Position numbers and translations under genes: made by a program
Assembly: GCF_037042905.1 (NCBI RefSeq)
Contig: NC_087250.1
Coordinates: 13,332,001 to 13,396,000, forward strand
Source: Lytechinus pictus
Taxonomy: Eukaryota
Reading direction: 5' to 3'
DNA length: 64,000 nucleotides
Shown: positions 10,377 to 57,928 of the stretch, one piece after another
Layout of the letters: every line of letters begins with the position of its first letter
How positions within the stretch are numbered: position 1 is the stretch's first letter
Notes under the pieces: generated by a model
Told to the model about the DNA's origin: nothing
Seen by the model: the letters and a program-made list of their open reading frames with translations, nothing else
Database searches by the model: none

Positions 10377-10595
10377 GTAAGTGATTATTTATGTTTTATT
10401 TGTAAAATAAAAGTCATCATCACCGTTTTCTCTTGCCAAGATAGGTTGTAAATCATTGACGATTGACCCGCTGCCGTGTACAGACAGCAGACCCGACGGT
10501 TGCGGGGCATCTAAGCCTGGGAGCTCCGGCCCGCTTCCCGGGCCAGAGCCCAGGAGACTCGTCCGTGTATTACTTAGTAGTTAGTAGGCTACTAC

Positions 10596-11457
10596 ACCAG
10601 GCTGAAGCCAGCGCACAAACCCAGCGCACAGAATATATTGAAGCAAGCCAGCGCACAAATCCAGCGCACAGAGCTATCGCGATACAAACCGCCCTACACC
10701 GTGTGCGTAGTCTATTACTAATTAGTCGCAGACCCTAAATACAGCTTAAATTCTCAAACGTCTCGAATATTGTCATAATGCGCACGGAAATGGTATAGTA
10801 AAAAGGCATAGTTACCGGAACTTACAGATGATTGAAAATATGGAACTTCCATAATGCACTATTCCACATTATGATTGCTTCAAATATTAGTATATGACTG
10901 ATTTGTATAACATTTGAATATAATCATTAAGAATTGAATGGAGTATGTTTCTATATGGCATGAGTGCAGCTGAAAATAATACAGATAAAGAAGAATCAAA
11001 CAAAGTTGGTAAAATGTAAACAATATCGGACAAGGTTAATAGAGTTATGATATTTCAAAGATCCGCATTTCGGCCAGTTCTATATGCATTTCTTCTTTAA
11101 CATTCAATGGAGAAAAGTAATCTCTCCTGTATATTCCCACTTTTTTAATCACATGAATTCATGATTATTCAAATTTCCTCCTCCTATAGAATTACAAATA
11201 TTGTATTAAAACTATTTAATGCATTTTCTCATTAATTTATGGACATTATTTTAATAAGAGACATCACATGATTAAAAGATGATTTCATGCAAGAGCATTT
11301 TATAAGCAAAACGAAGTTGGAACACGTCATCATAAATCACTTCAAATAGATAGTTATGACTGCGTGCATTTTATTTTCACAAAATACTGCTTACTTCAAA
11401 ATTCAGTATCAGAGTTTGATGATTGCTTCCGGATTCTCTTTTGTAAATTCAACTCTT
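10596..11457 (+). repeat. Left unique TIR of the 43-kb element
   Basis: Colinear reverse complement of 53102-53932 with substitutions and indels; four subterminal CCAGCGCACA motifs at 10608-10670. Confidence 0.92.
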
Positions 11458-11468
11458 ATTAATAACTA

Positions 11469-11711
11469 TACCCAGTTGTTGTGTGTCCGGACAGGTTGTG
11501 TGTCCGGACGATCAATTTTAGAAAGTCATTTTGAAAAATTTACAAGCGATCGAAGTTTCATCAATTTTTAGTACAAAATGTTAGGAAACAATATAAAGAA
11601 CACAACAGAAGATGATAACAGCTATTGAATTCATATTTTTAGTGTAATCCAAAGACAAAAAAGAAGGCTTCAAAAATATAAAGTGTCCGGACACCCGACC
11701 TCCCATCCTAT
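11469..11711 (+). repeat. ~240-bp dispersed repeat, copy 1
   Basis: TACCCAGTTG...GTGTCCGGACGATCAATTTTAGAAAGTCATTT...GTGTCCGGACACCC...CCCATCCTAT; a second direct copy lies at 58090-58332; absent from the right arm. Confidence 0.85.
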
Positions 11712-14503
11712 CTTATTTCCAGCGCGGAGTATGCAACCATTTTATGTGTTCTGAATTTCCTATGTGTATCAATATAGTTTTTGCTTATTCCCTAAATAAA
11801 ATGCATCAGTTAATAAATTTCATATGAAAGGTCAGTCCCTCTCGCACGGGCCTTGGAACGGGGGGGGGGGGGGGGGAGACCACATTAAATTCTCAGAAAA
11901 AATTACATAACAACTTTAAAGAACTCCCTGCGTTTCGGGGCATCTTAGACGCCGTCCCCTTTTTTGTGCACCATTTAAAGTTCACCCCTAAATCGATGAA
12001 GTGATTAATGAAGATAACTCTGGTTAATTTTCATGACATAAAATGTTATTTTCGATTAGCGGCTAATTTATTACCAGCCCCCGGCCACCAAAGCGAAAAT
12101 GTTGGAATACACATACACACATAGCGCGCGCGATATTTTCGTCAACGCACCCCGACATTTCGGGGCACCCTAGACCCCGTCCCCCTTTTCTGTGCACCAA
12201 TGTTCACCCCTAGATCGATGAAGTGATTAATAAAGATCAATTTGGTTGATTTTCAAGAAATAAAATCCTGATTTCGATTAGCGGCGAATTTATTACCAGA
12301 CCAAAGCGGAATTGTTTTAATACACGTACATAATATAGCACGCCATAATAGCAAGTGCCGTATTTTCGTCAATGCACCCCCACCTTTCGGGGCATCGTAG
12401 ACCCCGTCCCCCTTTTCTGTGCACCAATGTTCACCCCTAGATCGATAAAGTGATTAATAAAGATCAATTTGGTTGATTTTCAAGAAATAAAATCCTGATT
12501 TCGATTAGCGGCGAATTTATTACCAGACCAAAGCGGAATTGTTGGAATACACGTACATAATATAGCACGCCATAATAGCAAGTGCCGTATTTTCGTCAAT
12601 GCACCCCCACCTTTCGGGGCATCGTAGACCCCGTCCCCCTTTTCTGTGCACCAATGTTCACCCCTAGATCGATGAAGTGATTGATAAAGATCAATTTGGT
12701 TGATTTTCAAGACATAAAATGGTGATTTCGATTAGCGGCGAATTTATTACCAGACCAAAGCGGAATTGTTGGAATACACGTACATAATATAGCACGCCAT
12801 AATAGCAAGTGCCGTATTTTCGTCAATGCACCCCCACCTTTCGGGGCATCGTAGACCCCGTCCCCCTTTTCTGTGCACCAATGTTCACCCCTAGATCGAT
12901 GAAGTGATTGATAAAGATCAATTTGGTTGATTTTCAAGACATAAAATGGTGATTTCGATTAGCGGCGAATTTATTACCAGACCAAAGCGGAATTGTTGGA
13001 ATACACGTACATAATATAGCACGCCATAATAGCAAGTGCCGTAGTTTCGTCAATGCACCCCCACCTTTCGGGGCATCGTAGACCCCGTCCCCCTTTTCTG
13101 TGCACCAATGTTCACCCCTAGATCGATGAAGTGATTAATAAAAATCAATTTGATTGATTTTCAGGAAATAAAATCGTGATTTCGATTAGCGGCGAATTTA
13201 TTACCAGACCAAAGCGGAATTGTTGGAATACACGTACATAATATAGCACGCCATAATAGCAAGTGCCGTATTTTCGTCAATGCATCCCCACATTTCGGGG
13301 CATCGTAGACCCCGTCCCCCTTTTCTGTGCACCAATGTTCACCCCTAGATCGATAAAGTGATTAATAAAGATCAATTTGGTTGATTTTCAAGAAATAAAA
13401 TCCTGATTTCGATTAGCGGCGAATTTATTACCAGACCAAAGCGGAATTGCTTGAATACACGTACATAATATAGCACGCCATAATATGAAGTGCCGTATTT
13501 TCGTCAATGCACCCCCACCTTTCGGGGCATCGTAGACCCCGTCCCCCTTTTCTGTGCACCAATGTTTACCCCTAGATCGATGGAGTAATTAATAAAGATC
13601 AATTTGGTTGATTTTCAAGAAATAAAATCGTGATTATGATTAGCGGCGAATTTATTACCAGACCATAGCGGAATTGTTTGAATACACGTACATAATATAG
13701 CACGCCATAATAGCAAGTGCCGTATTTTCGTCAATGCACCCCGACATTTCGGGGCATCGTATACCCCGTCCCCCTTTTCTGTGCACCAATGTTCATCCCT
13801 AGATGGATGAAGTGATTAATAAAGATCAATTTGGTTGATTTTCAAGAGATAAAATCCTGATTTCGATTAGCGGCGAATTTATTACCAGACCAAAGCGGAA
13901 TTGTTTGAATACACGTACATAATATAGCACGCCATAATAGCAAGTGCCGTATTTTCGTCAATGCACCCCCACCTTTCGGGGCATCGTAGACCCCGTCCCC
14001 CTTTTCTGTGCACCAATGTTCACCCCTAGATCGATGAAGTGATTAATAAAGATCAATTTGGCTGATTTTCAAGAAATAAAATCGTGATTTTGATTAGCGG
14101 CGAATTTATTACCAGACCAAAGCGGAATTGTTTGAATACACGTACATAATATAGCACGCCATAATAGCAAGTGCCGTATTTTCGTCAATGCACCCCCACC
14201 TTTCGGGGCATCGTAGACCCCGTCCCCCTTTTCTGTGCACCAATGTTCACCCCTAGATCGATAAAGTGATTAATAAATATCAATTTGGTTGATTTTCAAG
14301 AAATAAAATCGTGATTTCGATTAGCGGCGAATTTATTACCAGACCAAAGCGGAATTGTTTGAATACACGTACATAATATAGCACGCCATAATAGCAAGTG
14401 CCGTATTTTCGTCAATGCACCCCCATCTTTCGGTGCATCGTAGACCCCGTCCCCCTTTTCTGTGCACCAATGTTCACCCCTAGATCGATGAAGTGATTGA
14501 TAA

Positions 14504-16942
14504 TAGGAGTGGGCTATACATGGGTCAAAAATACTTTTTTTGTAATTTCAATATGACAACAGTTTTTTTTTATTCCTTGTAATGTATCTCAACATGAAAT
14601 GACAATATTTTTTGTCTCGGGTCCGAGAAAAAAGTGTGCCGGGCCAAAATCCAAAATGGCCGCCAAAACCCCCCAAAATCACAGTTTTGGCCACAACTTT
14701 TTTATTTGGTGGTCAATTTCTCTGGTTTTGGTGTCTATTCATATGTTTTGGGGGGCAGGCAATTTGTTTTTCCTATATTTAGTATTTTTAAACCATTATT
14801 TGTAGAGTTAAAAGGTAATTATACCTAAATTTTCCAATTTTTGTAGCCTTTTTTCAGCCAAAAAGTAGGTTTTATCATCCTGGGGTTCTGGGATATTAGA
14901 TGGTACGAGGTCAACAATAGCAAGCAGCTTCATATAGCTATATTGCTTTTATTCCTCCACTTTGGGTTTTACGGATATTTGTGAAATATATCTTATTAAA
15001 TAAAAAAATGTCAGTTATCCATTGGGGCTATACAGTATATACAATGTACTGTACATACATGTACATACTGCACTGCATAAATGCATTGGCCACCATGACA
15101 TATAACAAGGCTTGTATAAACTATAGTGTCATAGAAATGAGCTCTCAGGTTTAGAATTAGATGCCTCAGAAATTGAAGATATGTTTTGTCCCAGAAATTG
15201 AGGACATGTTTTGTCAAATATGCTAATTCTCGCTACCCCAAATAGCGATTTCGCCGAGATCTGGGAAAATCCCTGTAACGTGCATTGCATTATGGGATAG
15301 CTTTTTCGGTATTACAACTTCCTGTTCGGAAGTCCAATGCACTGTTTTGCCATTCAGATCAACAGTGCCGTCATGCACAACAACACAACGTCGCTTTCGC
15401 TCGGAAAGTTCGTGATCACAACCCTCTCTTTCACGATACAGTTTAACAGTTTTACAGCCTTTTCTGCTTAAGTCACTAATTCTGCCCGACGCTTTCCATT
15501 GCACGGTATTCATCTGTCAGTTAAGATTTTTTTAAGTTCCGAAACTGATTTTTATCAATTTTGTGGTCGACGAAAAATTGAACGAAATTAATGCTGTATA
15601 TATTTAGCGTCTAGTTGAATACGATCGTGATGTCAGGCCGGTCGCTAAATGCAAAATTTTAAGATATTCATTATTTGTTTGATTTTTTATAACCAAATAA
15701 AAACATGAATAAAAATTATTTTCACGTGAAATATATATTTTTTATTTTATTTATAATTCAAATGGAATCAAAACTGACCAAATGTAATAAAAAGTATTAT
15801 ACTCTGTACATATTACGCTGATTGGCATCGGTTTCAGCGTGGTGGAAAACTCAGTATCGCGAACCTCGCGCGAGCATGACTCTAAACCGGAAGTGGTGAT
15901 GACGACCCGACGGAGTGAAAATTATCTCGTCTCGCGCATTATGAGATTTTTGTTCCTATTTGGGGTAGCGAGAATTCAGGGGGCGGAGAGAGGTAATTTA
16001 CACTGTAGCTATTCTGGGCCCCGTTGCATAAAAATTTACCATTATGTTAACTTAACTTAATGGTAACTTGCATGCAATCCTTTATTCTGATTGGCTGTTG
16101 ATCAGCGTTACCATGATACTAGTAGTTATCTGACCCCATAAACATAGGCCAGTTAGACACCAGAACCAGGTTTTTAAAAAAGCCTCCAAATGAAGAAGAT
16201 ATGGCTAAAAATTTGATGTACATATATATACATGTATGTGATATTTACATGTAAGTGTAATTTATGTTGCTGGTTTCACCATGTACATCAGCTGACAAGG
16301 TATCAAATTCACAATCTAATTCTAAACCTTTGAAGCTCATTTCTATGACACTAGTTTATATACAGGCCTTGTCATATGCCATGGTGGTCAATGCATGGAT
16401 ATATGCAGTGTAGTATGTACAGTGCATTGTACACCGTATAGCCCCTATGGATAAATGACATTTTCTTTTATTTCACAAATATCCGTAAAACCCAAAGTGG
16501 AGGAATAAAAGCAATATAGCTATATGAAGCTGCTTGCTATTGTTGACCTCGTACCATCTAATATCCCAGAACCCCAGGATGATAAAACCTACTTTTTGGC
16601 TGAAAAAAGGCTACAAAAATTGGAAAATTTAGGTATAATTACCTTTTAACTCTACAAATAATGGAATAAAAGTACTAATTATAGGAAAAACAAATTGCCT
16701 GCCCCCCAAAACATATGAATAGACACCAAAACCAGAGAAATTGACCACCAAATAAAAAAGTTGTGGCCAAAACTGTGATTTTGGGGGGTTTTGGCGGCCA
16801 TTTTGGATTTTGGCCCGGCACACTTTTTTCTCGGACCCGAGACAAAAAATATTGTCATTTCATGTTGAGATAAGGTAAAAGGAACACAAAAAAACTGTTC
16901 CCACAGTAAAACCAAAAATCACCCATTTATAGCCCACTCCTA
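14504..16942. mobile_element. 2.4-kb long-TIR non-autonomous DNA element inserted in the satellite
   Basis: TAGGAGTGGGCTATA ... TATAGCCCACTCCTA; inverted arms ~14504-15162 vs ~16314-16942; TSD TTGATAA (14497-14503 and 16943-16949; boundary ambiguous, 3, 5 or 7 bp). The satellite resumes in register after it. Confidence 0.9.
15229..15972. mobile_element. MITE nested within the 2.4-kb element
   Basis: Perfect TIR CTCGCTACCCCAAATAG / CTATTTGGGGTAGCGAG flanked by AATT on both sides (a 4-bp AWWT TSD would fit Sola1; inference). Confidence 0.78.
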
Positions 16943-19900
16943 TTGATAAAGATCAATTTGGTTGATTTTCAAGAAATAAAATCGTGATTTCGATTAGCGG
17001 CGAATTTATTACCAGACCAAAGCGGAATTGTTTGAATACACGTACATATAGCACGCCATAATAGCAAGTGCCGTATTTTCGTCAATGCACCCCCACCTTT
17101 CGGGGCATCGTGACCCCGTCCCCCTTTTCTGTGCACCAATGTTCACCCCTAGATCGATGAAGTGATTAATAAAGATCAATTTGGTTGATTTTCAAGAAAT
17201 AAAATCGTGATTTCGATTAGCGGCGAATGTATTACCAGACCAAAGCGGAATTGTTTGAATACACGTACATAATATAGCACGCCATAATAGCAAGTGCCGT
17301 ATTTTCGTCAATGCACCCCCACCTTTCGGGGCATCGTAAACCCCGTCCCCCTTTTCTGTGCACCAATGTTCACCCCTAGATCGATAAAGTGATTAATAAA
17401 GATCAATTTGGTTGATTTTCAAGAAATAAAATCCTGATTTCGATTAGCGGCGAATTTATTACCAGACCAAAGCGGAATTGTTTGAATACACGTACATAAT
17501 ATAGCACGCCATAATAGCAAGTGCCGTATTTTCGTCAATGCACCCCTACCTTTCTGGGCATCGTAGACCCCGTCCCCCTTTTCTGTGCACCAATGTTCAC
17601 CCCTAGATCGATAAAGTGATTGATAAAGATCAATTTGGTTGATTTTCAAGAAATAAAATCCTGATTTCGATTAGCGGCGAATTTATTACCAGTAGACCAA
17701 AGCGGAATTGTTTGAATACACGTACATAATATAGCACGCCATAATAGCAAGTGCCGTATTTTCGTCAATGCACCCCCACCTTTCGGGGCATCGTAGACCC
17801 CGTCCCCCTTTTCTGTGCACCAATGTTCACCCCTAGATCGATGAAGTGATTGATAAAGATCAATTTGGTTGATTTTCAAGAAATAAAATCCTGATTTCGA
17901 TTAGCGGCGAATTTATTACCAGACCAAAGCGGAATTGTTTGAATACACGTACATATAGCACGCCATAATAGCAAGTGCCGTATTTTCGTCAATGCACCCC
18001 CACCTTTCGGGGCATCGTGACCCCGTCCCCCTTTTCTGTGCACCAATGTTCACCCCTAGATCGATGAAGTGATTAATAAAGATCAATTTGGTTGATTTTC
18101 AAGAAATAAAATCGTGATTTCGATTAGCGGCGAATGTATTACCAGACCAAAGCGGAATTGTTTGAATACACGTACATAATATAGCACGCCATAATAGCAA
18201 GTGCCGTATTTTCGTCAATGCACCCCCACCTTTCGGGGCATCGTAAACCCCGTCCCCCTTTTCTGTGCACCAATGTTCACCCCTAGATCGATAAAGTGAT
18301 TAATAAAGATCAATTTGGTTGATTTTCAAGAAATAAAATCCTGATTTCGATTAGCGGCGAATTTATTACCAGACCAAAGCGGAATTGTTTGAATACACGT
18401 ACATAATATAGCACGCCATAATAGCAAGTGCCGTATTTTCGTCAATGCACCCCCACCTTTCGGGGCATCGTAGACCCCGTCCCCCTTTTCTGTGCACCAA
18501 TGTTCACCCCTAGATCGATAAAGTGATTAATAAAGATCAATTTGGATGATTTTCAAGAAATAAAATCGTGATTTCGATTAGCGGCGAATTTATTACCAGA
18601 CCAAAGCGGAATTGTTGGAATACACGTACATAATATAGCACGCCATAATAGCAAGTGCCGTATTTTCGTCAATGCACCCCTACCTTTCTGGGCATCGTAG
18701 ACCCCGTCCCCCTTTTCTGTGCACCAATGTTCACCCCTAGATCGATAAAGTGATTGATAAAGATCAATTTGGTTGATTTTCAAGAAATAAAATCCTGATT
18801 TCGATTAGCGGCGAATTTATTACCAGTAGACCAAAGCGGAATTGTTTGAATACACGTACATAATATAGCACGCCATAATAGCAAGTGCCGTATTTTCGTC
18901 AATGCACCCCCACCTTTCGGGGCATCGTGACCCCGTCCCCCTTTTCTGTGCACCTATGTTCACCCCTAGATCGATGAAGTGATTAATAAAGATCAATTTG
19001 GTTGATTTTCAAGAAATAAAATCGTGATTTCGATTAGCGGCGAATGTATTACCAGACCAAAGCGGAATTGTTTGAATACACGTACATAATATAGCACGCC
19101 ATAATAGCAAGTGCCGTATTTTCGTCAATGCACCCCCACCTTTCGGGGCATCGTAAACCCCGTCCCCCTTTTCTGTGCACCAATGTTCACCCCTAGATCG
19201 ATAAAGTGATTAATAAAGATCAATTTGGATGATTTTCAAGAAATAAAATCGTGATTTCGATTAGCGGCGAATTTATTACCAGACCAAAGCGGAATTGTTG
19301 GAATACACGTACATAATATAGCACGCCATAATAGCAAGTGCCGTATTTTCGTCAATGCACCCCTACCTTTCTGGGCATCGTAGACCCCGTCCCCCTTTTC
19401 TGTGCACCAATGTTCACCCCTAGATCGATAAAGTGATTGATAAAGATCAATTTGGTTGATTTTCAAGAAATAAAATCCTGATTTCGATTAGCGGCGAATT
19501 TATTACCAGACCGAAGCGGAATTGTTTGAATACACGTACATATAGCACGCCATAATAGCAAGTGCCGTATTTTCGTCAATGCACCCCCACCTTTCGGGGC
19601 ATCGTGACCCCGTCCCCCTTTTCTGTGCACCAATGTTCACCCCTAGATCGATGAAGTGATTAATAAAGATCAATTTGGTTGATTTTCAAGAAATAAAATC
19701 GTGATTTCGATTAGCGGCGAATGTATTACCAGACCAAAGCGGAATTGTTTGAATACACGTACATAATATAGCACGCCATAATATCAAGTGCCGTATTTTC
19801 GTCAATGCACCCCCACCTTTCGGGGCATCGTAAACCCCGTCCCCCTTTTCTGTGCACCAATGTTCACCCCTAGATCGATAAAGTGATTAATAAAGATCAA

Positions 19901-22900
19901 TTTGGTTGATTTTCAAGAAATAAAATCCTGATTTCGATTAGCGGCGAATTTATTACCAGACCAAAGCGGAATTGTTTGAATACACGTACATAATATAGCA
20001 CGCCATAATAGCAAGTGCCGTATTTTCGTCAATGCACCCCTACCTTTCTGGGCATCGTAGACCCCGTCCCCCTTTTCTGTGCACCAATGTTCACCCCTAG
20101 ATCGATAAAGTGATTGATAAAGATCAATTTGGTTGATTTTCAAGAAATAAAATCCTGATTTCGATTAGCGGCGAATTTATTACCAGTAGACCAAAGCGGA
20201 ATTGTTTGAATACACGTACATAATATAGCACGCCATAATAGCAAGTGCCGTATTTTCGTCAATGCACCCCCACCTTTCGGGGCATCGTAGACCCCGTCCC
20301 CCTTTTCTGTGCACCAATGTTCACCCCTAGATCGATGAAGTGATTGATAAAGATCAATTTGGTTGATTTTCAAGAAATAAAATCGTGATTTCGATTAGCG
20401 GCGAATTTATTACCAGACCAAAGCGGAATTGTTTGAATACACGTACATATAGCACGCCATAATAGCAAGTGCCATATTTTCGTCAATGCACCCCCACCTT
20501 TCGGGGCATCGTGACCCCGTCCCCCTTTTCTGTGCACCAATGTTCACCCCTAGATCGATGAAGTGATTAATAAAGATCAATTTGGTTGATTTTCAAGAAA
20601 TAAAATCGTGATTTCGATTAGCGGCGAATGTATTACCAGACCAAAGCGGAATTGTTTGAATACACGTACATAATATAGCACGCCATAATAGCAAGTGCCG
20701 TATTTTCGTCAATGCACCCCCACCTTTCGGGGCATCGTAAACCCCGTCCCCCTTTTCTGTGCACCAATGTTCACCCCTAGATCGATAAAGTGATTAATAA
20801 AGATCAATTTGGTTGATTTTCAAGAAATAAAATCCTGATTTCGATTAGCGGCGAATTTATTACCAGACCAAAGCGGAATTGTTTGAATACACGTACATAA
20901 TATAGCACGCCATAATAGCAAGTGCCGTATTTTCGTCAATGCACCCCCACCTTTCGGGGCATCGTAGACCCCGTCCCCCTTTTCTGTGCACCAATGTTCA
21001 CCCCTAGATCGATAAAGTGATTAATAAAGATCAATTTGGATGATTTTCAAGAAATAAAATCCTGATTTCGATTAGCGGCGAATTTATTACCAGACCAAAG
21101 CGGAATTGTTGGAATACACGTACATAATATAGCACGCCATAATAGCAAGTGCCGTATTTTCGTCAATGCACCCCTACCTTTCTGGGCATCGTAGACCCCG
21201 TCCCCCTTTTCTGTGCACCAATGTTCACCCCTAGATCGATAAAGTGATTGATAAAGATCAATTTGGTTGATTTTCAAGAAATAAAATCCTGATTTCGATT
21301 AGCGGCGAATTTATTACCAGTAGACCAAAGCGGAATTGTTTGAATACACGTACATAATATAGCACGCCATAATAGCAAGTGCCGTATTTTGGTCAATGCA
21401 CCCCCACCTTTCGGGGCATCGTAGACCCCGTCCCCCTTTTCTGTGCACCAATGTTCACCCCTAGATCGATAAAGTGATTAATAAAGATCAATTTGGATGA
21501 TTTTCAAGAAATAAAATCCTGATTTCGATTAGCGGCGAATTTATTACCAGACCAAAGCGGAATTGTTGGAATACACGTACATAATATAGCACGCCATAAT
21601 AGCAAGTGCCGTATTTTCGTCAATGCACCCCTACCTTTCTGGGCATCGTAGACCCCGTCCCCCTTTTCTGTGCACCAATGTTCACCCCTAGATCGATAAA
21701 GTGATTGATAAAGATCAATTTGGTTGATTTTCAAGAAATAAAATCCTGATTTCGATTAGCGGCGAATTTATTACCAGTAGACCAAAGCGGAATTGTTTGA
21801 ATACACGTACATAATATAGCACGCCATAATAGCAAGTGCCGTATTTTCGTCAATGCACCCCCACCTTTCGGGGCATCGTGACCCCGTCCCCCTTTTCTGT
21901 GCACCTATGTTCACCCCTAGATCGATGAAGTGATTAATAAAGATCAATTTGGTTGATTTTCAAGAAATAAAATCGTGATTTCGATTAGCGGCGAATGTAT
22001 TACCAGACCAAAGCGGAATTGTTTGAATACACGTACATAATATAGCACGCCATAATAGCAAGTGCCGTATTTTCGTCAATGCACCCCCACCTTTCGGGGC
22101 ATCGTAAACCCCGTCCCCCTTTTCTGTGCACCAATGTTCACCCCTAGATCGATAAAGTGATTAATAAAGATCAATTTGGTTGATTTTCAAGAAATAAAAT
22201 CCTGATTTCGATTAGCGGCGAATTTATTACCAGACCAAAGCGGAATTGTTTGAATACACGTACATAATATAGCACGCCATAATAGCAAGTGCCGTATTTT
22301 GGTCAATGCACCCCCACCTTTCGGGGCATCGTAGACCCCGTCCCCCTTTTCTGTGCACCAATGTTCACCCCTAGATCGATAAAGTGATTAATAAAGATCA
22401 ATTTGGATGATTTTCAAGAAATAAAATCGTGATTTCGATTAGCGGCGAATTTATTACCAGACCAAAGCGGAATTGTTGGAATACACGTACATAATATAGC
22501 ACGCCATAATAGCAAGTGCCGTATTTTCGTCAATGCACCCCTACCTTTCTGGGCATCGTAGACCCCGTCCCCCTTTTCTGTGCACCAATGTTCACCCCTA
22601 GATCGATAAAGTGATTGATAAAGATCAATTTGGTTGATTTTCAAGAAATAAAATCCTGATTTCGATTAGCGGCGAATTTATTACCAGTAGACCAAAGCGG
22701 AATTGTTTGAATACACGTACATAATATAGCACGCCATAATAGCAAGTGCCGTATTTTCGTCAATGCACCCCCACCTTTCGGGGCATCGTGACCCCGTCCC
22801 CCTTTTCTGTGCACCTATGTTCACCCCTAGATCGATGAAGTGATTAATAAAGATCAATTTGGTTGATTTTCAAGAAATAAAATCGTGATTTCGATTAGCG

Positions 22901-40900: not shown

Positions 40901-43875
40901 GCAAGTGCCGTATTTTCGTCAATGCACCCCCACCTTTCGGGGCATCGTGACCCCGTCCCCCTTTTCTGTGCACCTATGTTCACCCCTAGATCGATGAAGT
41001 GATTAATAAAGATCAATTTGGTTGATTTTCAAGAAATAAAATCGTGATTTCGATTAGCGGCGAATGTATTACCAGACCAAAGCGGAATTGTTTGAATACA
41101 CGTACATAATATAGCACGCCATAATAGCAAGTGCCGTATTTTCGTCAATGCACCCCCACCTTTCGGGGCATCGTAAACCCCGTCCCCCTTTTCTGTGCAC
41201 CAATGTTCACCCCTAGATCGATAAAGTGATTAATAAAGATCAATTTGGTTGATTTTCAAGAAATAAAATCCTGATTTCGATTAGCGGCGAATTTATTACC
41301 AGACCAAAGCGGAATTGTTTGAATACACGTACATAATATAGCACGCCATAATAGCAAGTGCCGTATTTTCGTCAATGCACCCCCACCTTTCGGGGCATCG
41401 TAGACCCCGTCCCCCTTTTCTGTGCACCAATGTTCACCCCTAGATCGATAAAGTGATTGATAAAGATCAATTTGGTTGATTTTCAAGAAATAAAATCCTG
41501 ATTTCGATTAGCGGCGAATTTATTACCAGTAGACCAAAGCGGAATTGTTTGAATACACGTACATAATATAGCACGCCATAATAGCAAGTGCCGTATTTTC
41601 GTCAATGCACCCCCACCTTTCGGGGCATCGTGACCCCGTCCCCCTTTTCTGTGCACCTATGTTCACCCCTAGATCGATAAAGTGATTAATAAAGATCAAT
41701 TTGGTTGATTTTCAAGAAATAAAATCGTAATTTCGATTAGCGGCGAATGTATTACCAGACCAAAGCGGAATTGTTTGAATACACGTACATAATATAGCAC
41801 GCCATAATAGCAAGTGCCGTATTTTCGTCAATGCACCCCCACCTTTCGGGGCATCGTAAACCCCGTCCCCCTTTTCTGTGCACCAATGTTCACCCCTAGA
41901 TCGATAAAGTGATTAATAAAGATCAATTTGGTTGATTTTCAAGAAATAAAATCCTGATTTCGATTAGCGGCGAATTTATTACCAGACCAAAGCGGAATTG
42001 TTTGAATACACGTACATAATATAGCACGCCATAATAGCAAGTGCCGTATTTTGGTCAATGCACCCCCACCTTTCGGGGCATCGTAGACCCCGTCCCCCTT
42101 TTCTGTGCACCAATGTTCACCCCTAGATCGATAAAGTGATTAATAAAGATCAATTTGGATGATTTTCAAGAAATAAAATCCTGATTTCGATTAGCGGCGA
42201 ATTTATTACCAGACCAAAGCGGAATTGTTGGAATACACGTACATAATATAGCACGCCATAATAGCAAGTGCCGTATTTTCGTCAATGCACCCCTACCTTT
42301 CTGGGCATCGTAGACCCCGTCCCCCTTTTCTGTGCACCAATGTTCACCCCTAGATCGATAAAGTGATTGATAAAGATCAATTTGGTTGATTTTCAAGAAA
42401 TAAAATCCTGATTTCGATTAGCGGCGAATTTATTACCAGTAGACCAAAGCGGAATTGTTTGAATACACGTACATAATATAGCACGCCATAATAGCAAGTG
42501 CCGTATTTTCGTCAATGCACCCCCACCTTTCGGGGCATCGTGACCCCGTCCCCCTTTTCTGTGCACCTATGTTCACCCCTAGATCGATGAAGTGATTAAT
42601 AAAGATCAATTTGGTTGATTTTCAAGAAATAAAATCGTGATTTCGATTAGCGGCGAATGTATTACCAGACCAAAGCGGAATTGTTTGAATACACGTACAT
42701 AATATAGCACGCCATAATAGCAAGTGCCGTATTTTCGTCAATGCACCCCCACCTTTCGGGGCATCGTAAACCCCGTCCCCCTTTTCTGTGCACCAATGTT
42801 CACCCCTAGATCGATAAAGTGATTAATAAAGATCAATTTGGTTGATTTTCAAGAAATAAAATCCTGATTTCGATTAGCGGCGAATTTATTACCAGACCAA
42901 AGCGGAATTGTTTGAATACACGTACATAATATAGCACGCCATAATAGCAAGTGCCGTATTTTCGTCAATGCACCCCCACCTTTCGGGGCATCGTAGACCC
43001 CGTCCCCCTTTTCTGTGCACCAATGTTCACCCCTAGATCGATAAAGTGATTAATAAAGATCAATTTGGATGATTTTCAAGAAATAAAATCGTGATTTCGA
43101 TTAGCGGCGAATTTATTACCAGACCAAAGCGGAATTGTTGGAATACACGTACATAATATAGCACGCCATAATAGCAAGTGCCGTATTTTCGTCAATGCAC
43201 CCCTACCTTTCTGGGCATCGTAGACCCCGTCCCCCTTTTCTGTGCACCAATGTTCACCCCTAGATCGATAAAGTGATTGATAAAGATCAATTTGGTTGAT
43301 TTTCAAGAAATAAAATCCTGATTTCGATTAGCGGCGAATTTATTACCAGTAGACCAAAGCGGAATTGTTTGAATACACGTACATAATATAGCACGCCATA
43401 ATAGCAAGTGCCGTATTTTCGTCAATGCACCCCCACCTTTCGGGGCATCGTGACCCCGTCCCCCTTTTCTGTGCACCTATGTTCACCCCTAGATCGATAA
43501 AGTGATTAATAAAGATCAATTTGGTTGATTTTCAAGAAATAAAATCGTGATTTCGATTAGCGGCGAATGTATTACCAGACCAAAGCGGAATTGTTTGAAT
43601 ACACGTACATAATATAGCACGCCATAATAGCAAGTGCCGTATTTTCGTCAATGCACCCCCACCTTTCGGGGCATCGTAAACCCCGTCCCCCTTTTCTGTG
43701 CACCAATGTTCACCCCTAGATCGATAAAGTGATTAATAAAGATCAATTTGGTTGATTTTCAAGAAATAAAATCCTGATTTCGATTAGCGGCGAATTTATT
43801 ACCAGACCAAAGCGGAATTGTTTGAATACACGTACATAATATAGCACGCCATAATAGCAAGTGCCGTATTTTCGT

Positions 43876-43909
43876 CACTGAACTAGAGATACGTATCTCT
43901 AGTTCAGTG
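43876..43909. mobile_element. 34-bp perfect palindrome with 8-bp TSD; probable transposon excision footprint
   Basis: CACTGAACTAGAGATAC|GTATCTCTAGTTCAGTG flanked by ATTTTCGT (43868-43875 and 43910-43917); neighbouring monomers show the empty site. Confidence 0.85.
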
Positions 43910-44098
43910 ATTTTCGTCAATGCACCCCCACCTTTCGGGGCATCGTAGACCCCGTCCCCCTTTTCTGTGCACCAATGTTCACCCCTAGATCCATGAAGTG
44001 ATTAATAAAGATCAATTTGGTTGTTTTCAAGAAATAAAATCGTGATTTCGATTAGCGGCGAATTTATTACCAGACCAAACCGGAATTGTTGGAATACA

Positions 44099-44451
44099 AC
44101 TATTAAATTCGTCAATTGAAACAGTAAAATAGCCCTAATTTTTCCGCCACAGTAAAAAAATAGTTCCAAAGTCATTGATATATCTTCCCAATTTGGGCAA
44201 AGGAAGTTCAGTAGTTACCATTTTTAGAATCAGTGTTAGATTTTTATTGATATTCATACACTTTTGTTAATCATCAATATCATATTATAGAAAAATCGAA
44301 TGGGTTGGGTCGAACGAATATCTTTTGCATTCTTGCTGTAATTAGTCTAATGGCATCCGTAGTGCGCTTATAATCGTTCCGATGTATGAATCGCTATATA
44401 AATTGGATTACTGAATTTTAATTATTGTTACTTTTATTATTATTCTCATAG
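44099..44451. other. 353-bp unique AT-rich central spacer of the 43-kb foldback
   Basis: The left array stops at ...GGAATACA (44098) and the inverted array starts at ATTGGTGCACAG (44452). No recognisable ORF. Confidence 0.9.
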
Positions 44452-47400
44452 ATTGGTGCACAGAAAAAGGGGACGGGGTCTACGATGCCCCGAAAGGTGG
44501 GGGTGCATTGACGAACATACGGCGCCTGCTATTATGGCGTGCTATATATATTATGTACGTGTATATTCCAACAATTCCACTTTGGTCTGGTAATAAATTC
44601 GCCGCTAATCGAAATCACCATTTTATGTCTTGAAAATCAACCAAGTTGATTTTTATTAATCACTTCATCGATCTAGGGGTGAACATTGGTGCACAGAAAA
44701 GGGGTCTACGATGCCCCGAAAGGTAGGGGGTGCAAGGACGAAAATATAGCGCGTGCTATATATGTATTATATACTGTACGTGTATTCCAACAATTCCACT
44801 TTGGTCTGGTAATAAATTCGCCGCTAATCGAAATCACCATTTTATGTCTTGAAAATCAACCAAATTGATCTTCATTAATCACTACATCGATCAAGGGGTG
44901 AACATTGGTGCACAGAAAAGGGGGACGGGGTCTACGATGCCCCGAAAGGTAGGGGGTGCAAGGACGAAAATATAGCGCGTGCTATATATGTATTATATAC
45001 TGTACGTGTATTCCAACAATTCCACTTTGGTCTGGTAATAAATTCGCCGCTAATCGAAATCACCATTTTATGTCTTGAAAATCAACCAAATTGATCTTCA
45101 TTAATCACTTCATCGATCTAGGGGTGAACATTGGTGCACAGAAAAGGGGGACGGGGTCTACGATGCCCCGAAAGGTAGGGGGTGCAAGGACGAAAATATA
45201 GCGCGTGCTATATATGTATTATATACGTGTATTCCAACAATTCCACTTTGGTCTGGTAATAAATTCGCCGCTAATCGAAATCACCATTTTATGTCTTGAA
45301 AATCAACCAAATTGATCTTCATTAATCACTTCATCGATCTAGGGGTAAACATTGGTGCACAGAAAAGGGGGACGGGGTCTACGATGCCCCGAAAGGTAGG
45401 GGGTGCATTGACGAAAATACGGCGCCTGCTATTATGGCGTGCTATATATATTATGTACGTGTATATTCCAACAATTCCACTTTGGTCTGGTAATAAATTC
45501 GCCGCTAATCGAAATCACCATTTTATGTCTTGAAAATCAACCAAATTGATCTTTAATAATCACTTCATCGATCTAGGGGTAAACATTGGTGCACAGAAAA
45601 GGGGGACGGGGTCTACGATGCCCCGAAAGGTAGGGGGTGCAAGGACGAAAATATAGCGCGTGCTATATATATACGTGTATTCCAACAATTCCACTTTGGT
45701 CCGGTAATAAATTCGCCGCTAATCGAAATCACCATTTTATGTCTTGAAAATCAACCAAATTGATCTTTATTAATCACTTCATCGATCTAGGGGTGAACAT
45801 TGGTGCACAGAAAAGGGGGACGGGGTCTACGATGCCCCGAAAGGTGGGGGTGCATTGACGAAAATACGGCGCCTGCTATTATGGCGTGCTATATATATTA
45901 TGTACGTGTATATTCCAACAATTCCACTTTGGTCTGGTAATAAATTCGCCGCTAATCGAAATCACCATTTTATGTCTTGAAAATCAACCAAATTGATCTT
46001 CATTAATCACTTCATCGATCTAGGGGTGAACATTGGTGCACGGAAAAGGGGGACGGGGTCTACGATGCCCCGAAAGGTAGGGGGTGCAAGGACGAAAATA
46101 TAGCGCGTGCTATATATGTATTATATACGTGTATTCCAACAATTCCACTTTGGTCTGGTAATAAATTCGCCGCTAATCGAAATCACCATTTTATGTCTTG
46201 AAAATCAACCAAATTGATCTTCATTAATCACTTCATCGATCTAGGGGTTAACATTGGTGCACAGAAAAGGGGGACGGGGTCTACGATGCCCCGAAAGGTA
46301 GGGGGTGCAAGGACGAAAATATAGCGCGTGCTATATATGTATTATATACGTGTATTCCAACAATTCCACTTTGGTCTGGTAATAAATTCGCCGCTAATCG
46401 AAATCACCATTTTATGTCTTGAAAATCAACCAAATTGATCTTCATTAATCACTACATCGATCTAGGGGTGAACATTGGTGCACAGAAAAGGGGGACGGGG
46501 TCTACGATGCCCCGAAAGGTAGGGGGTGCAAGGACGAAAATATAGCGCGTGCTATATATGTATTATATACTGTACGTGTATTCCAACAATTCCACTTTGG
46601 TCTGGTAATAAATTCGCCGCTAATCGAAATCACCATTTTATGTCTTGAAAATCAACCAAATTGATCTTTATTAATCACTTCATCGATCTAGGGGTGAACA
46701 TTGGTGCACAGAAAAGGGGGACGGGGTCTACGATGCCCCGAAAGGTGGGGGTGCATTGACGAAAATACGGCGCCTGCTATTATGGCGTGCTATATATATT
46801 ATGTACGTGTATATTCCAACAATTCCACTTTGGTCTGGTAATAAATTCGCCGCTAATCGAAATCACCATTTTATGTCTTGAAAATCAACCAAATTGATCT
46901 TCATTAATCACTTCATCGATCTAGGGGTGAACATTGGTGCACAGAAAAGGGGGACGGGGTCTACGATGCCCCGAAAGGTAGGGGGTGCAAGGACGAAAAT
47001 ATAGCGCGTGCTATATATGTATTATATACGTGTATTCCAACAATTCCACTTTGGTCTGGTAATAAATTCGCCGCTAATCGAAATCACCATTTTATGTCTT
47101 GAAAATCAACCAAATTGATCTTCATTAATCACTACATCGATCTAGGGGTGAACATTGGTGCACAGAAAAGGGGGACGGGGTCTACGATGCCCCGAAAGGT
47201 AGGGGGTGCAAGGACGAAAATATAGCGCGTGCTATATATGTATTATATACGTGTATTCCAACAATTCCACTTTGGTCTGGTAATAAATTCGCCGCTAATC
47301 GAAATCACCATTTTATGTCTTGAAAATCAACCAAATTGATCTTCATTAATCACTTCATCGATCTAGGGGTGAACATTGGTGCACAGAAAAGGGGGACGGG

Positions 47401-50400
47401 GTCTACGATGCCCCGAAAGGTAGGGGGTGCAAGGACGAAAATATAGCGCGTGCTATATATGTATTATATACGTGTATTCCAACAATTCCACTTTGGTCTG
47501 GTAATAAATTCGCCGCTAATCGAAATCACCATTTTATGTCTTGAAAATCAACCAAATTGATCTTCATTAATCACTACATCGATCTAGGGGTGAACATTGG
47601 TGCACAGAAAAGGGGGACGGGGTCTACGATGCCCCGAAAGGTAGGGGGTGCAAGGACGAAAATATAGCGCGTGCTATATATGTATTATATACTGTACGTG
47701 TATTCCAACAATTCCACTTTGGTCTGGTAATAAATTCGCCGCTAATCGAAATCACCATTTTATGTCTTGAAAATCAACCAAATTGATCTTCAATAATCAC
47801 TTCATCGATCTAGGGGTGAACATTGGTGCACAGAAAAAAGGGACGGGGTCTACGATGCCCCGAAAGGTGGGGGTGCATTGACGAAAATACGGCGCCTGCT
47901 ATTATGGCGTGCTATATATATTATGTACGTGTATATTCCAACAATTCCACTTTGGTCTGGTAAAAATTCGCCGCTAATCGAAATCACCATTTTATGTCTT
48001 GAAAATCAACCAAATTGATCTTCATTAATCACTACATCGATCTAGGGGTGAACATTGGTGCACAGAAAAGGGGGACGGGGTCTACGATGCCCCGAAAGGT
48101 AGGGGGTGCAAGGACGAAAATATAGCGCGTGCTATATATGTATTATATACGTGTATTCCAACAATTCCACTTTGGTCTGGTAATAAATTCGCCGCTAATC
48201 GAAATCACCATTTTATGTCTTGAAAATCAACCAAATTGATCTTCATTAATCACTTCATCGATCTAGGGGTAAACATTGGTGCACAGAAAAAGGGGACGGG
48301 GTCTACGATGCCCCGAAAGGTGGGGGTGCATTGACGAAAATACGGCGCCTGCTATTATGGCGTGCTATATATATTATGTACGTGTATATTCCAACAATTC
48401 CACTTTGGTCTGGTAATAAATTCGCCGCTAATCGAAATCACCATTTTATGTCTTGAAAATCGACCAAATTGATCTTCATTAATCACTTCATCGATCTAGG
48501 GGTAAACATTGGTGCACAGAAAAGGGGGACGGGGTCTACGATGCCCCGAAAGGTAGGGGGTGCAAGGACGAAAATATAGCGCGTGCTATATATATACGTG
48601 TATTCCAACAATTCCACTTTGGTCTGGTAATAAATTCGCCGCTAATCGAAATCACCATTTTATGTCTTGAAAATCAACCAAATTGATCTTTATTAATCAC
48701 TTCATCGATCTAGGGGTGAACATTGGTGCACAGAAAAAGGGGACGGGGTCTACGATGCCCCGAAAGGTGGGGGTGCATTGACGAAAATACGGCGCCTGCT
48801 ATTATGGCGTGCTATATATATTATGTACGTGTATATTCCAACAATTCCACTTTGGTCTGGTAATAAATTCGCCGCTAATCGAAATCACCATTTTATGTCT
48901 TGAAAATCAACCAAATTGATCTTCATTAATCACTTCATCGATCTAGGGGTGAACATTGGTGCACAGAAAAGGGGGACGGGGTCTACGATGCCCCGAAAGG
49001 TAGGGGGTGCAAGGACGAAAATATAGCGCGTGCTATATATGTATTATATACTGTACGTGTATTCCAACAATTCCACTTTGGTCTGGTAATAAATTCGCCG
49101 CTAATCGAAATCACCATTTTATGTCTTGAAAATCAACCAAATTGATCTATATTAATCACTTCATCGATCTAGGGGTGAATATTGGTGCACAGAAAAAGGG
49201 GACGGGGTCTACGATGCCCCGAAAGGTGGGGGTGCATTGACGAAAATACGGCGCCTGCTATTATGGCGTGCTATATATATTATGTACGTGTATATTCCAA
49301 CAATTCCACTTTGGTCTGGTAATAAATTCGCCGCTAATCGAAATCACCATTTTATGTCTTGAAAATCAACCAAATTGATCTTCATTAATCACTTTATCGA
49401 TCTAGGGGTGAACATTGGTGCACAGAAAAGGGGGACGGGGTCTACGATGCCCCGAAAGGTAGGGGGTGCAAGGACGAAAATATAGCGCGTGCTATATATG
49501 TATTATATACGTGTATTCCAACAATTCCACTTTGGTCTGGTAATAAATTCGCCGCTAATCGAAATCACCATTTTATGTCTTGAAAATCAACCAAATTGAT
49601 CTTTATTAATCACTTCATCGATCTAGGGGTGAACATTGGTGCACAGAAAAATGGGACGGGGTCTACGATGCCCCGAAAGGTGGGGGTGCATTGACGAAAA
49701 TACGGCGCCTGCTATTATGGCGTGCTATATATATTATGTACGTGTATATTCCAACAATTCCACTTTGGTCTGGTAATAAATTCGCCGCTAATCGAAATCA
49801 CCATTTTATGTCTTGAAAATCAACCAAATTGATCTTTATTAATCACTTCATCGATCTAGGGGTGAACATTGGTGCACAGAAAAGGGGGACGGGGTCTACG
49901 ATGCCCCGAAAGGTAGGGGGTGCAAGGACGAAAATATAGCGCGTGCTATATATGTATTATATACTGTACGTGTATTCCAACAATTCCACTTTGGTCTGGT
50001 AATAAATTCGCCGCTAATCGAAATCACCATTTTATGTCTTGAAAATCAACCAAATTGATCTTTATTAATCACTTCATCGATCTAGGGGTGAACATTGGTG
50101 CACAGAAAAAGGGGACGGGGTCTACGATGCCCCGAAAGGTGGGGGTGCATTGACGAAAATACGGCGCCTGCTATTATGGCGTGCTATATATATTATGTAC
50201 GTGTATATTCCAACAATTCCACTTTGGTCTGGTAATAAATTCGCCGCTAATCGAAATCACCATTTTATGTCTTGAAAATCAACCAAATTGATCTTCATTA
50301 ATCACTTCATCGATCTAGGGGTGAACATTGGTGCACAGAAAAAGGGGACGGGGTCTACGATGCCCCGAAAGGTGGGGGTGCATTGACGAAAATACGGCGC

Positions 50401-52870
50401 CTGCTATTATGGCGTGCTATATATATTATGTACGTGTATATTCCAACAATTCCACTTTGGTCTGGTAATAAATTCGCCGCTAATCGAAATCACCATTTTA
50501 TGTCTTGAAAATCAACCAAATTGATCTTCATTAATCACTTCATCGATCTAGGGGTGAACATTGGTGCACAGAAAAGGAGGACGGGGTCTACGATGCCCCG
50601 AAAGGTAGGGGGTGCAAGGACGAAAATATAGCGCGTGCTATATATGTATTATATACTGTACGTGTATTCCAACAATTCCACTTTGGTCTGGTAATAAATT
50701 CGCCGCTAATCGAAATCACCATTTTATGTCTTGAAAATCAACCAAATTGATCTTCATTAATCACTTCATCGATCTAGGGGTGAACATTGGTGCACAGAAA
50801 AGGGGGACGGGGTCTACGATGCCCCGAAAGGTAGGGGGTGCAAGGACGAAAATATAGCGCGTGCTATATATGTATTATATACGTGTATTCCAACAATTCC
50901 ACTTTGGTCTGGTAATAAATTCGCCGCTAATCGAAATCACCATTTTATGTCTTGAAAATCAACCAAATTGATCTTCATTAATCACTTCATCGATCTATAT
51001 AGGGGTAAACATTGGTGCACAGAAAAGGAGGACGGGGTCTACGATGCCCCGAAAGGTAGGGGGTGCAAGGACGAAAATATAGCGCGTGCTATATATGTAT
51101 TATATACTGTACGTGTATTCCAACAATTCCACTTTGGTCTGGTAATAAATTCGCCGCTAATCGAAATCACCATTTTATGTCTTGAAAATCAACCAAATTG
51201 ATCTTCATTAATCACTACATCGATCTAGGGGTGAACATTGGTGCACAGAAAAGGGGGACGGGGTCTACGATGCCCCGAAAGGTAGGGGGTGCAAGGACGA
51301 AAATATAGCGCGTGCTATATATGTATTATATACTGTACGTGTATTCCAACAATTCCACTTTGGTCTGGTAATAAATTCGCCGCTAATCGAAATCACCATT
51401 TTATGTCTTGAAAATCAACCAAATTGATCTTCATTAATCACTTCATCGATCTAGGGGTGAACATTGGTGCACAGAAAAGGGGGACGGGGTCTACGATGCC
51501 CCGAAAGGTAGGGGGTGCAAGGACGAAAATATAGCGCGTGCTATATATGTATTATATACGTGTATTCCAACAATTCCACTTTGGTCTGGTAATAAATTCG
51601 CCGCTAATCGAAATCACCATTTTATGTCTTGAAAATCAACCAAATTGATCTTCATTAATCACTTCATCGATCTAGGGGTAAACATTGGTGCACAGAAAAG
51701 GGGGACGGGGTCTACGATGCCCCGAAAGGTAGGGGGTGCATTGACGAAAATACGGCGCCTGCTATTATGGCGTGCTATATATATTATGTACGTGTATATT
51801 CCAACAATTCCACTTTGGTCTGGTAATAAATTCGCCGCTAATCGAAATCACCATTTTATGTCTTGAAAATCAACCAAATTGATCTTCATTAATCACTTCA
51901 TCGATCTAGGGGTAAACATTGGTGCACAGAAAAGGGGGACGGGGTCTACGATGCCCCGAAAGGTAGGGGGTGCAAGGACGAAAATATAGCGCGTGCTATA
52001 TATATACGTGTATTCCAACAATTCCACTTTGGTCTGGTAATAAATTCGCCGCTAATCGAAATCACCATTTTATGTCTTGAAAATCAACCAAATTGATCTT
52101 TATTAATCACTTCATCGATCTAGGGGTAAACATTGGAGCACAGAAAAATGGGACGGGGTCTACGATGCCCCGAAAGGTGGGGGTGCATTGACGAAAATAC
52201 GGCGCCTGCTATTATGGCGTGCTATATATATTATGTACGTGTATATTCCAACAATTCCACTTTGGTCTGGTAATAAATTCGCCGCTAATCGAAATCACCA
52301 TTTTATGTCTTGAAAATCAACCAAATTGATCTTTATTAATCACTTCATCGATCTAGGGGTGAACATTGGTGCACAGAAAAGGGGGACGGGGTCTACGATG
52401 CCCCGAAAGGTAGGGGGTGCAAGGACGAAAATATAGCGCGTGCTATATATGTATTATATACTGTACGTGTATTCCAACAATTCCACTTTGGTCTGGTAAT
52501 AAATTCGCCGCTAATCGAAATCACCATTTTATGTCTTGAAAATCAACCAAATTGATCTTCATTAATAACTTCATCGATCTAGGGGTGAACATTGGTGCAC
52601 AGAAAAGGGGGACGGGGTCTACGATGCCCCGAAAGGTGGAGGTGCATTGACGAAAATACGGCACTTGCTATTATGGCGTGCTATATTATGTACGTGTATT
52701 CCAACAATTCCGCTTTGGTCTGGTAGTAAATTCGCCGCTAATCGAAATCACGATTTTATGTCTTGAAAATCAACCAAATTGATCTTTAATAATCACTTAA
52801 TCGATCTAGGGGTGAACATTGGTGCACAGAAAAGGGGGACGGGGTCTACGATGCCCCGAAATGCAGGGGG
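44452..52870 (-). repeat. Satellite array, right arm (~37 monomers; variants of 214/221/226/233 bp), inverted relative to the left array
   Basis: Reverse complement of the left monomer with arm-specific variants (CCATTTTATGTCTTG, TTCCACTTTGG, GCAAGGACGAAAATATAGCGCGTG). Confidence 0.98.
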
Positions 52871-53101
52871 TGTAATTTTTATTGAGAATTTGATATAGAT
52901 ATTAATGTCTTCATGAATATTCATTAGGTGGGCTGATGATATCATATCGGTTATCCCCACTCGTTCTTTTGTATTTTATTATATGATTTTCTACCACTTT
53001 ATTTTTACCTGGGACTAAAACAGTTGGAACTGATTCATTACTTCAGTTATTTGTTGTTGCAACTTCTTTCATCATAATACTAATAGAGACATCATTTACA
53101 A

Positions 53102-53932
53102 AAGAGTCAAATTTACAAAAGAGAATTTTGAGGTCAGCAGTATTTTGTGAAAATAAAATGCACGCAGTCATGACTATCCATTTGAAGTTATCATGATGTC
53201 GTGTTCCAACTTTCGTTTCGCTTATAAAATGTTCTTACATGAAGTCGTTTTTTAAATCATGTAATGTCTCTTATATTAAAATAATATCCATGAATTAATG
53301 AACAAATGCATTAAATTTTGTTTGATACAATATTTTTTATTCTAGGGGGAGGAAATTTGAATATTCATAAATTCATATGATTCAAAAAGATGGAATATAC
53401 AGGAGAGATTACTTTTCTCCAATGAATGTTAAAGAAGAAATTTAAGGCATATAGAACTGGCCGAAATGCGGATCTTTAGAATATCATAACTCTGTTATCC
53501 TTGTCCGATTTTGTTTACATTTTACCAAATTTGTTTGATTCTTCTTGATCTCAATTACTTTCAGCTGCATTCATGCCATGTCATATAGAAACATACTTCC
53601 TTTAATTCTTAATATATTCAAATGTTATACAAATCAGTCATATACTAATATTTGAAGCAATCATATTGTGGAATAGTGCATTATTAAAATTCCATATTAT
53701 CAGCCATCTGTAAGTTTGGATAACTATGCCTTTTATCTGCATACCATTTTCGTGCGCATTATGACAATCTTCGAGACGTTTGAATTTAAGCTGTATTTAG
53801 GGTCTGCAACTATTAGACTATGCATACGGTGTAGGGCGGTTTGTATCGCGATAGCTCTGTGCGCTGGATTTGTGCGCTGGCTTGCTTCAATATATTCTGT
53901 GCGCTGGGTTTGTGCGCTGGCTTCAGCCTGGT
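53102..53932 (-). repeat. Right unique TIR of the 43-kb element
   Basis: Reverse complement of 10596-11457, including four TGTGCGCTGG motifs. Confidence 0.92.
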
Positions 53933-54031
53933 GGCTACTACTACTAGGCAGTCGTCAGACATCACCCATGTCATGGTAACCCACTCATTCAATAAACAAG
54001 GTTATGATATAACCTTGTTCTCAGTTATATC

Positions 54032-57865: not shown

Positions 57866-57928
57866 TTTACTGTAATCACTGTCTCCTCTCCCCCCCCCCC
57901 ATTCACTCCCCACCCCCACCCAAATCAG

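Follow-up and report, generated by a model that had tools for sequence, protein, structure and literature searches.

A probable repeat-armed foldback transposon with satellite-sized arrays in the first intron of a sea urchin S1/CCHC gene

The window analysed here, a 64-kb stretch of the genome of the sea urchin Lytechinus pictus (contig NC_087250.1), holds exons of a gene for an S1/CCHC (zinc-knuckle) protein and, within the first intron of this gene, a foldback-type element (10596-53932) whose two inverted arms consist largely of a tandemly repeated unit of 227 bp. A 9-bp direct repeat abuts the element on both sides.

Exon 1 of the host gene was placed at 10336-10377 (plus strand), where an ATG opens 14 codons that run up to a GTAAGT donor at 10378. 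The match on which it is based (MAEFPTLYKIYRGD against MAAFPALYNIYKGE) was modest (E = 0.053) but the reading phase was coherent and it was the only N-terminus match in the window. Exon 2 (56619-56677, plus strand), where the S1 domain begins, is preceded by a stretch rich in pyrimidines and an AG. The S1 exon of the host gene provided the only credible Pfam match (E = 2.5e-4) among 121 stop-to-stop open reading frames of at least 55 aa located outside the arrays, and it led to two proteins, from Strongylocentrotus purpuratus and L. pictus, which were both mapped back by tblastn. Four exons were solidly recovered in this way (56619-56678, 57922-58032, 61473-61577 and 62494-62601), with identities of 86-95% to the S. 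purpuratus protein and 89-100% to the L. pictus protein. No transposase remnant was detected by Pfam among the same 121 reading frames and, having no coding capacity, the element is non-autonomous. Intron 1 extends from 10378 to 56618 (46,241 bp) and the element starts 218 bp past the exon-1 donor; subtracting 43,346 bp for the element plus a single duplication copy leaves 2,895 bp. The preliminary description of this DNA had assigned the structure to a genic locus and had proposed an intron of about 2.9 kb without it, and both statements held, the element lying inside intron 1. A side observation concerns protein P0002 (L. pictus, 799 aa), in which a reverse-transcriptase domain (PF00078) replaces the first exon of the S1/CCHC gene; this entry probably stems from a gene prediction that continued into an intron-1 retroelement.

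The two copies of the 9-bp target-site duplication, GGCTACTAC, are located at 10587-10595 and 53933-53941, both on the plus strand, and the sequence does not occur elsewhere in the window. Dinucleotide shuffling gave an expectation of 0.08 matches, and none of the 100 shuffles produced two. The direct repeat that borders the inverted homology on either side measures exactly 9 bp; abutting repeats of at least 9 bp were encountered in 165 of 200,000 random position pairs taken from the non-array parts of the window, a null distribution that is inflated by the tandem arrays of a neighbouring element (see below). Such an exact duplication bordering long inverted repeats is characteristic of cut-and-paste insertion, in this case with a 9-bp staggered cut.

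The left inverted terminus, or flanking domain (10596-11457, plus strand, 862 bp), was aligned globally with the right one (53932-53102, minus strand, 831 bp), which resulted in 65 mismatches and 65 gap columns over 879 columns; BLAST paired 10595-11404 with 53933-53123 at 88.5% over 827 columns. The outermost 107 bp of the termini (10596-10702 on the plus strand, the reverse complement of 53826-53932) are free of any difference, all mismatches and gap columns being confined to the other ~755 bp. By chance, an identical run of this length would be expected with a probability of 3e-7 at a per-site identity of 0.87, or of ~1e-4, by our own arithmetic, if mismatches alone are counted (identity 0.92). 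The motif CCAGCGCACA(A/G)A was found eight times in the window (expected 0.01), with four copies in each terminus (10608-10672 and 53856-53920) and none outside. These 12-bp repeats, four per end, are probably to be seen as putative transposase-binding sites. The perfect conservation of the ends despite the drift of the arms suggests either selection for transposition competence or conversion between the ends. If selection for transposition competence acted during this drift, the element would have last moved with arms that had already diverged.

Further inside, two opposed arrays surround a unique middle segment of 353 bp (44099-44451), for which no match was found in Pfam or elsewhere in the window. 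The left array yielded 133 monomer matches on the plus strand (11933-44098) and the right one 38 on the minus strand (44452-52872), which together represent ~38 kb; Tandem Repeats Finder (TRF) returned periods of 227 for the left array and 221/447 for the right. Each arm has a variable stretch of its own, without homology to the other arm, at the inner side of its flanking domain (11458-11884, plus strand, on the left; about 52892-53101 on the right). Homology between the arms is found again at the array junctions. The left junction motif (AAATTCTCAG AAAAAATTACA ...; 11885-11932, plus strand) lies just before the first monomer, and its right counterpart (about 52871-52891) forms, together with the right variable region, the segment 52873-53101 (minus strand); at the mirrored junction itself, AAATTCTCAGAAAAAATTACA on the left corresponds to AAATTCTCAATAAAAATTACA on the right, each immediately before the first monomer. 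When monomers were cut at TTTCGGGG, the outer ends of both arrays fell on monomer position 1, whereas the inner ends fell on positions 167 (left) and 44 (right). Since the outer boundaries of the arrays are homologous and the inner ones are not, the repeat would have been present in both ancestral arms, its array lengths having changed later from within. The element combines several attributes of foldback elements: long inverted repeats that form its bulk (10596-44098 and 44452-53932) around a short middle segment, tandem repeats that lie within the inverted arms, opposed and with their outer ends in phase, and a target-site duplication, exact over 9 bp, at its ends. No second copy of it was found elsewhere in the 64-kb window.

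The arrays have the organization of satellite DNA, i.e. long head-to-tail series of a single unit (about 29.7 kb in the left arm and 8.4 kb in the right). Full-length monomers made up 163 of the 171 matches (129 left, 34 right). Their mean p-distance amounted to 0.022 among left-arm monomers, 0.048 among right-arm monomers and 0.088 between arms, and 162 of the 163 had their nearest relative in their own arm. The arrays therefore grew separately in each arm. The sole exception was the outermost right monomer (52635-52861), which differed by 3.7% from the left bulk and by 8.5% from the right bulk. As this monomer is left-like, the left-type unit would represent the older form and the right bulk a derived one. 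The right array is composed of units of 221, 226 and 233 bp arranged in a dimer-based higher-order repeat. In the left arm, the outer part of the array (11933-14503, plus strand) consists of 11 full-length monomers (up to 14423), mostly of unique types, and of a partial twelfth; the very first is degenerate (76.6% identity to the reference unit). Past a nested insertion, the ~118 monomers of the bulk (16943-43875, plus strand) belong to a few types only (A-E) and form a homogeneous higher-order repeat with patterns such as ACDB. Near-identical blocks of up to 22 monomers recur there with an offset of 28 monomers, and identity is complete in 643 of 8,256 pairs. The last left monomers (43910-44098, plus strand) lead to the middle segment. 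We infer from this distribution that the left array has an old edge and a young core amplified block by block, the signature of unequal exchange or segmental duplication. As to the origin of the unit, sensitive BLAST found no relative in the non-array part of the window better than E = 0.64, and Rfam and tRNA scans of the window returned 0 families and 0 genes, respectively, and thus no origin for the monomer. A relationship between the monomer and the left flank, spotted by eye through a shared GGGGCATC-type word, was rejected, as sensitive BLAST gave it no support.

Most of this architecture had been anticipated in the preliminary description: an exact 9-bp direct repeat at the ends, inverted termini of ~0.85 kb, two inverted arrays (~130 and ~37 monomers) of a ~227-bp unit around a 353-bp spacer, and a mirrored junction between unique sequence and array were all recovered, the junction motif being common to both arms and both arrays starting in the same monomer phase. 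Its claim that the repeat is part of the terminal inverted repeat, not a later insertion, is upheld by the outer phase, the junction motif and the left-type outermost right monomer, and insertion as one unit, which it also proposed, finds support in the exact duplication bounding both ends.

Several smaller sequences, absent from the preliminary description, are embedded in the left arm. The left array is interrupted by a nested foldback-like element of 2,439 bp (14504-16942) with perfect 15-bp ends (TAGGAGTGGGCTATA), a duplication of 7-8 bp ((A)TTGATAA) and inverted arms of ~600 bp (14558-15162 against 16899-16314, 91.6%). Inside it, an inverted pair noticed by eye (aattctcgctaccccaaatag around 15226, its complement around 15957) may correspond to a second nested element. 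Close to the inner end of the same array, one monomer holds a perfect 34-bp palindrome (43876-43909) made of two abutting 17-bp arms (CACTGAACTAGAGATAC) and flanked by an 8-bp duplication (ATTTTCGT). It resembles a transposon reduced to its two ends, and no other copy was found in the window. Most of the left variable region consists of an unrelated interspersed repeat of ~245 bp (11467-11711), of which a copy 89% identical lies in a host-gene intron (58088-58325), with GTGTCCGGAC motifs close to both its ends.

Sequencing runs matching the window amounted to 18 rows, all of short-read contigs, with a best word share of 0.22. Four of them (three of organism A, together with X13) were aligned to 52600-57600, which gave 32 listed contig pieces out of more than 62,000. 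Three X13 pieces matched the right terminus with 1-3 differences, and two overlapping ones differed from it by 13 and 18 letters, where the two termini show 14 and 18 left-right mismatches. As these differences match the left-right mismatches, the X13 contigs carry both arm versions of the terminus. They provide weak independent support for two distinct termini, given that the run may share its source with the window. Summed depth in X13 was about 4-9 over most of the terminus and 25.6 in the outermost bin; such a rise could hint at additional copies of the conserved end, but nothing is concluded from it, contig depth not being equivalent to copy number. In the organism A runs, the outer 334 bp of the terminus (53602-53935) were uncovered and the rest was thinly covered; such missing cover proves nothing, yet the family may be specific to a lineage.

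Taken together, these data probably describe a non-autonomous foldback-type class II (cut-and-paste) transposon of a sea urchin that was inserted as one repeat-armed unit and whose arrays grew separately. The element would have entered intron 1 of the S1/CCHC gene in one piece, through a transposase making a 9-bp staggered cut. In each arm, a flanking domain of ~850 bp is followed by a short variable stretch and then by the array of 227-bp units; the 353-bp middle segment joins the arms, and no protein is encoded. A transposase supplied in trans would bind the motif-bearing 107-bp ends. The arrays, present in both arms of the ancestor, would have grown independently by unequal exchange or block duplication, with most of the growth presumably at the present site, and the outcome would be the conversion of a transposon-borne repeat into a satellite-sized array.

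Several points weigh against this reading. The junction 53932/53933 is not crossed by any of the 32 listed contig pieces, which hence display neither a filled site nor an empty one. The array lengths come from a single assembly. Because the arms are ~8% divergent at aligned sites, the intact duplication does not date the insertion (by our arithmetic, its 18 bp would have had about one chance in two of surviving if the arms had diverged in situ), and it is silent on whether the arrays grew before or after insertion. Cut-and-paste transposition would have had to move a unit as large as 43 kb. Nor are 9-bp duplications restricted to elements of Mutator type, as Merlin-type elements are reported with 8-9 bp. 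Finally, the doubled 12-bp terminal motif had 0 matches in public metagenome and viral contigs, a 41-nt invariant stretch of the monomer had 0 in metagenome contigs and a 37-nt stretch had 0 in prokaryote genome contigs, collections that hold little eukaryote DNA and are uninformative on this family.

The 9-bp duplication and the long inverted ends suggest a transposase of Mutator/Rehavkus/FB-like type. Mutator elements and Mutator-like elements (MULEs), a superfamily that includes Rehavkus and Phantom/FB, produce duplications of 8-11 bp, typically 9, and their terminal inverted repeats are long, from tens to hundreds of bp, to be compared with 9 bp and 862/831 bp here. Their defining transposase, a DDE enzyme of MuDR type, is encoded by the element itself or by an autonomous partner with the same termini. 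Rehavkus elements display subterminal tandem repeats, and the arrays of the present element follow the flanking domain in both arms. Membership of the Mutator/Rehavkus group would fit the duplication length, the long ends and the subterminal repeats. That the foldback belongs to some other superfamily, being Merlin-, P- or hAT-derived with a transposase that happened to give 9 bp here, seems unlikely. hAT elements generate duplications of 8 bp and P/Galileo elements of 7-8 bp, neither of which fits 9 bp, and a hAT- or P-type foldback (e.g. Galileo) was rejected as a candidate since exactly 9 bp were found. A Helitron/Helentron carrier was rejected as well: these elements have neither target duplication nor long terminal inverted repeats, and both a 9-bp duplication and inverted ends of ~850 bp are present. 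According to the available parts of the literature, 9 bp is the tabulated length for Rehavkus and most MULE groups, duplications of Tetris measure 8-10 bp (PMC4079207), and Rehavkus is said to be characterized by long ends that contain subterminal tandem repeats. On the other hand, a single copy offers a single duplication length, and the foldback shape evolved in several superfamilies, Galileo (P superfamily) being cited as an exception in the accessible text of PMC4079207.

Sea urchins have their own foldback elements, with which a further interpretation can be built. Liebermann and colleagues reportedly described the TU foldback elements of S. purpuratus in 1983; their long inverted repeats are divided into an outer and an inner domain, their arms contain tandem repeats, and their middle segments vary. 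To our knowledge, echinoderm foldback elements, described in the 1980s, have never been tied to a transposase. It is conceivable, though rather unlikely, that the present copy is a still-competent, TU-like member of this sea-urchin group, which, through the 9-bp duplication and the repeat-bearing ends, would link the TU lineage to Rehavkus/Mutator and bring Rehavkus-type elements into deuterostomes. Given the conserved 107-bp ends beside arms diverged by ~8%, the element would in that case have transposed as a foldback after arm divergence, and might have moved as a very large, array-laden unit.

We regard as quite improbable that the element is real but much smaller, its array length or inverted layout being an assembly artefact (over-expansion or mis-join). 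Long homogeneous arrays such as the left one (p-distance 0.022, 643 of 8,256 pairs identical) are indeed hard to assemble, and no junction is bridged by any of the 32 listed short-read contig pieces. Yet the palindrome is imperfect, with 65 mismatches and 65 gap columns between the two termini, the arrays are unlike in unit length, higher-order pattern and sequence (p-distance 0.088), and their inner ends are out of phase. Moreover, the left array holds nested insertions with their own duplications, both versions of the terminus occur in X13 contigs, and both the duplication and the 2,895 bp of residual intron agree with a single clean insertion. Arm lengths are also unequal (31 kb against 9.5 kb), and arms that do not form a perfect palindrome are unlike the product of a sequencing or assembly fold-back.

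An inverted duplication of an older satellite array with its flanks (fold-back priming or breakage-fusion), without any transposon and with a coincidental 9-bp repeat, is highly improbable: such duplications of tandem arrays do arise without transposition and no second element copy was seen in the window, but the direct repeat sits precisely at the two limits of the inverted homology and is absent from the remainder of the window, the repeated 12-bp motif is confined to the termini, 107 bp are perfectly conserved while the remaining terminus diverged, nothing outside the arrays in the window matches the monomer (best E-value 0.64), and the structure interrupts an otherwise ordinary intron of 2.9 kb.

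Other repeats surround the element. A second, unrelated foldback-type element occupies positions 1-10240, with inverted ends (7-1240 against 10157-8878, 85.8%) and opposed arrays of a 62-77-bp unit (440-2228, plus strand; 7888-9801, minus strand). Its left end is cut by the window start and its right end lies ~100 bp upstream of the host ATG. To the right of the large element, 53936-55271 corresponds to a high-copy repeat with a summed contig depth of about 10^5 in the three organism A runs, where many contigs jump over ~625 bp between 54026 and 54653. The host introns also contain a hairpin-like repeat (55484-55741 against 56071-55821, 93%) and self-inverted stretches at 56120-56424 (78%), 61278-61398 (90%) and 63098-63518 (74%).

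How a transposon repeat becomes a satellite generally has to be reconstructed from dispersed fragments. In the present case one copy has preserved its two ends, the duplication, the old first monomers and the young amplified core, so that a single locus reveals in which order the events took place. The element neatly illustrates a known route by which transposons seed satellite DNA. For the host, the consequence is that a conserved gene bears a first intron of 46,241 bp, which would be 2,895 bp if the element were removed. A family with readable ends also provides a handle for finding the echinoderm foldback transposase. A literature search on satellites of sea urchins yielded no paper specific to these animals.

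Among known systems, the FB elements of Drosophila melanogaster have long inverted arms composed largely of tandem repeats, a 9-bp duplication and mostly no coding sequence. The sea urchin element shares with them the repeat-built inverted arms and the duplication length but differs by its host phylum and by its satellite-sized unit of 227 bp, the arm units of FB measuring 10-31 bp. With TU elements it has in common an echinoid host, domain-structured inverted repeats and tandem repeats in the arms.

Tetris of Drosophila virilis provides a close parallel. As far as the available portion of its description goes (PMC4079207), its arms consist of a flanking domain of up to 866 bp followed by ~220-bp tandem repeats and an inner domain, around a non-coding middle; it generates 8-10-bp duplications, has no known transposase, was tentatively assigned to Mutator by its authors, and its arm repeat is a satellite source. 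The same text assigns FB elements to the Mutator superfamily, and mentions Tetris inverted repeats of up to 1,735 bp and only three structurally complete copies in the assembly (PMC4079207). Compared by layout alone, the flanking domains of 862/831 bp, the 227-bp unit and the 9-bp duplication of the sea urchin element come near these values. The differences lie in the host, insect versus echinoderm, and in size, the one bounded copy seen here having arms of about 31 kb and 9.5 kb, nested insertions included.

Rehavkus elements, in the passages available (10.1101/2024.12.02.626372; PMC6446971), are Mutator-related, with 9-bp duplications and long ends containing subterminal tandem repeats; they are defined by a PHD-finger transposase, and arthropods and annelids are the sole hosts tabulated there. 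The arm repeats of the Tribolium elements vary from 2-12 copies up to an array of 80.5 kb (TCsat12), and TfSat06 arrays lie within inverted termini of more than 11 kb (same sources). The sea urchin element resembles them in its 9-bp duplication, in the expansion of arm repeats into long arrays and in the location of these arrays in inverted termini. In contrast, the 80.5-kb Tribolium array is not presented, in those passages, as bounded by both termini and a duplication. The Tribolium paper (10.1101/2024.12.02.626372), citing Liu and Wessler 2017, states in the part available that more tandem repeats in foldback termini lead to stronger transposase binding and more excision, which would give foldback elements a reason to keep arm repeats.

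The preliminary description implied a high degree of novelty, which the accessible literature does not support, the expansion of foldback arm repeats into long arrays having already been described for Tetris and Rehavkus. By analogy, the structure would work like Tetris, Rehavkus, FB and TU elements and does not appear to be a new kind of element. It leaves the picture obtained from Drosophila and Tribolium unchanged and adds a deuterostome example to it.

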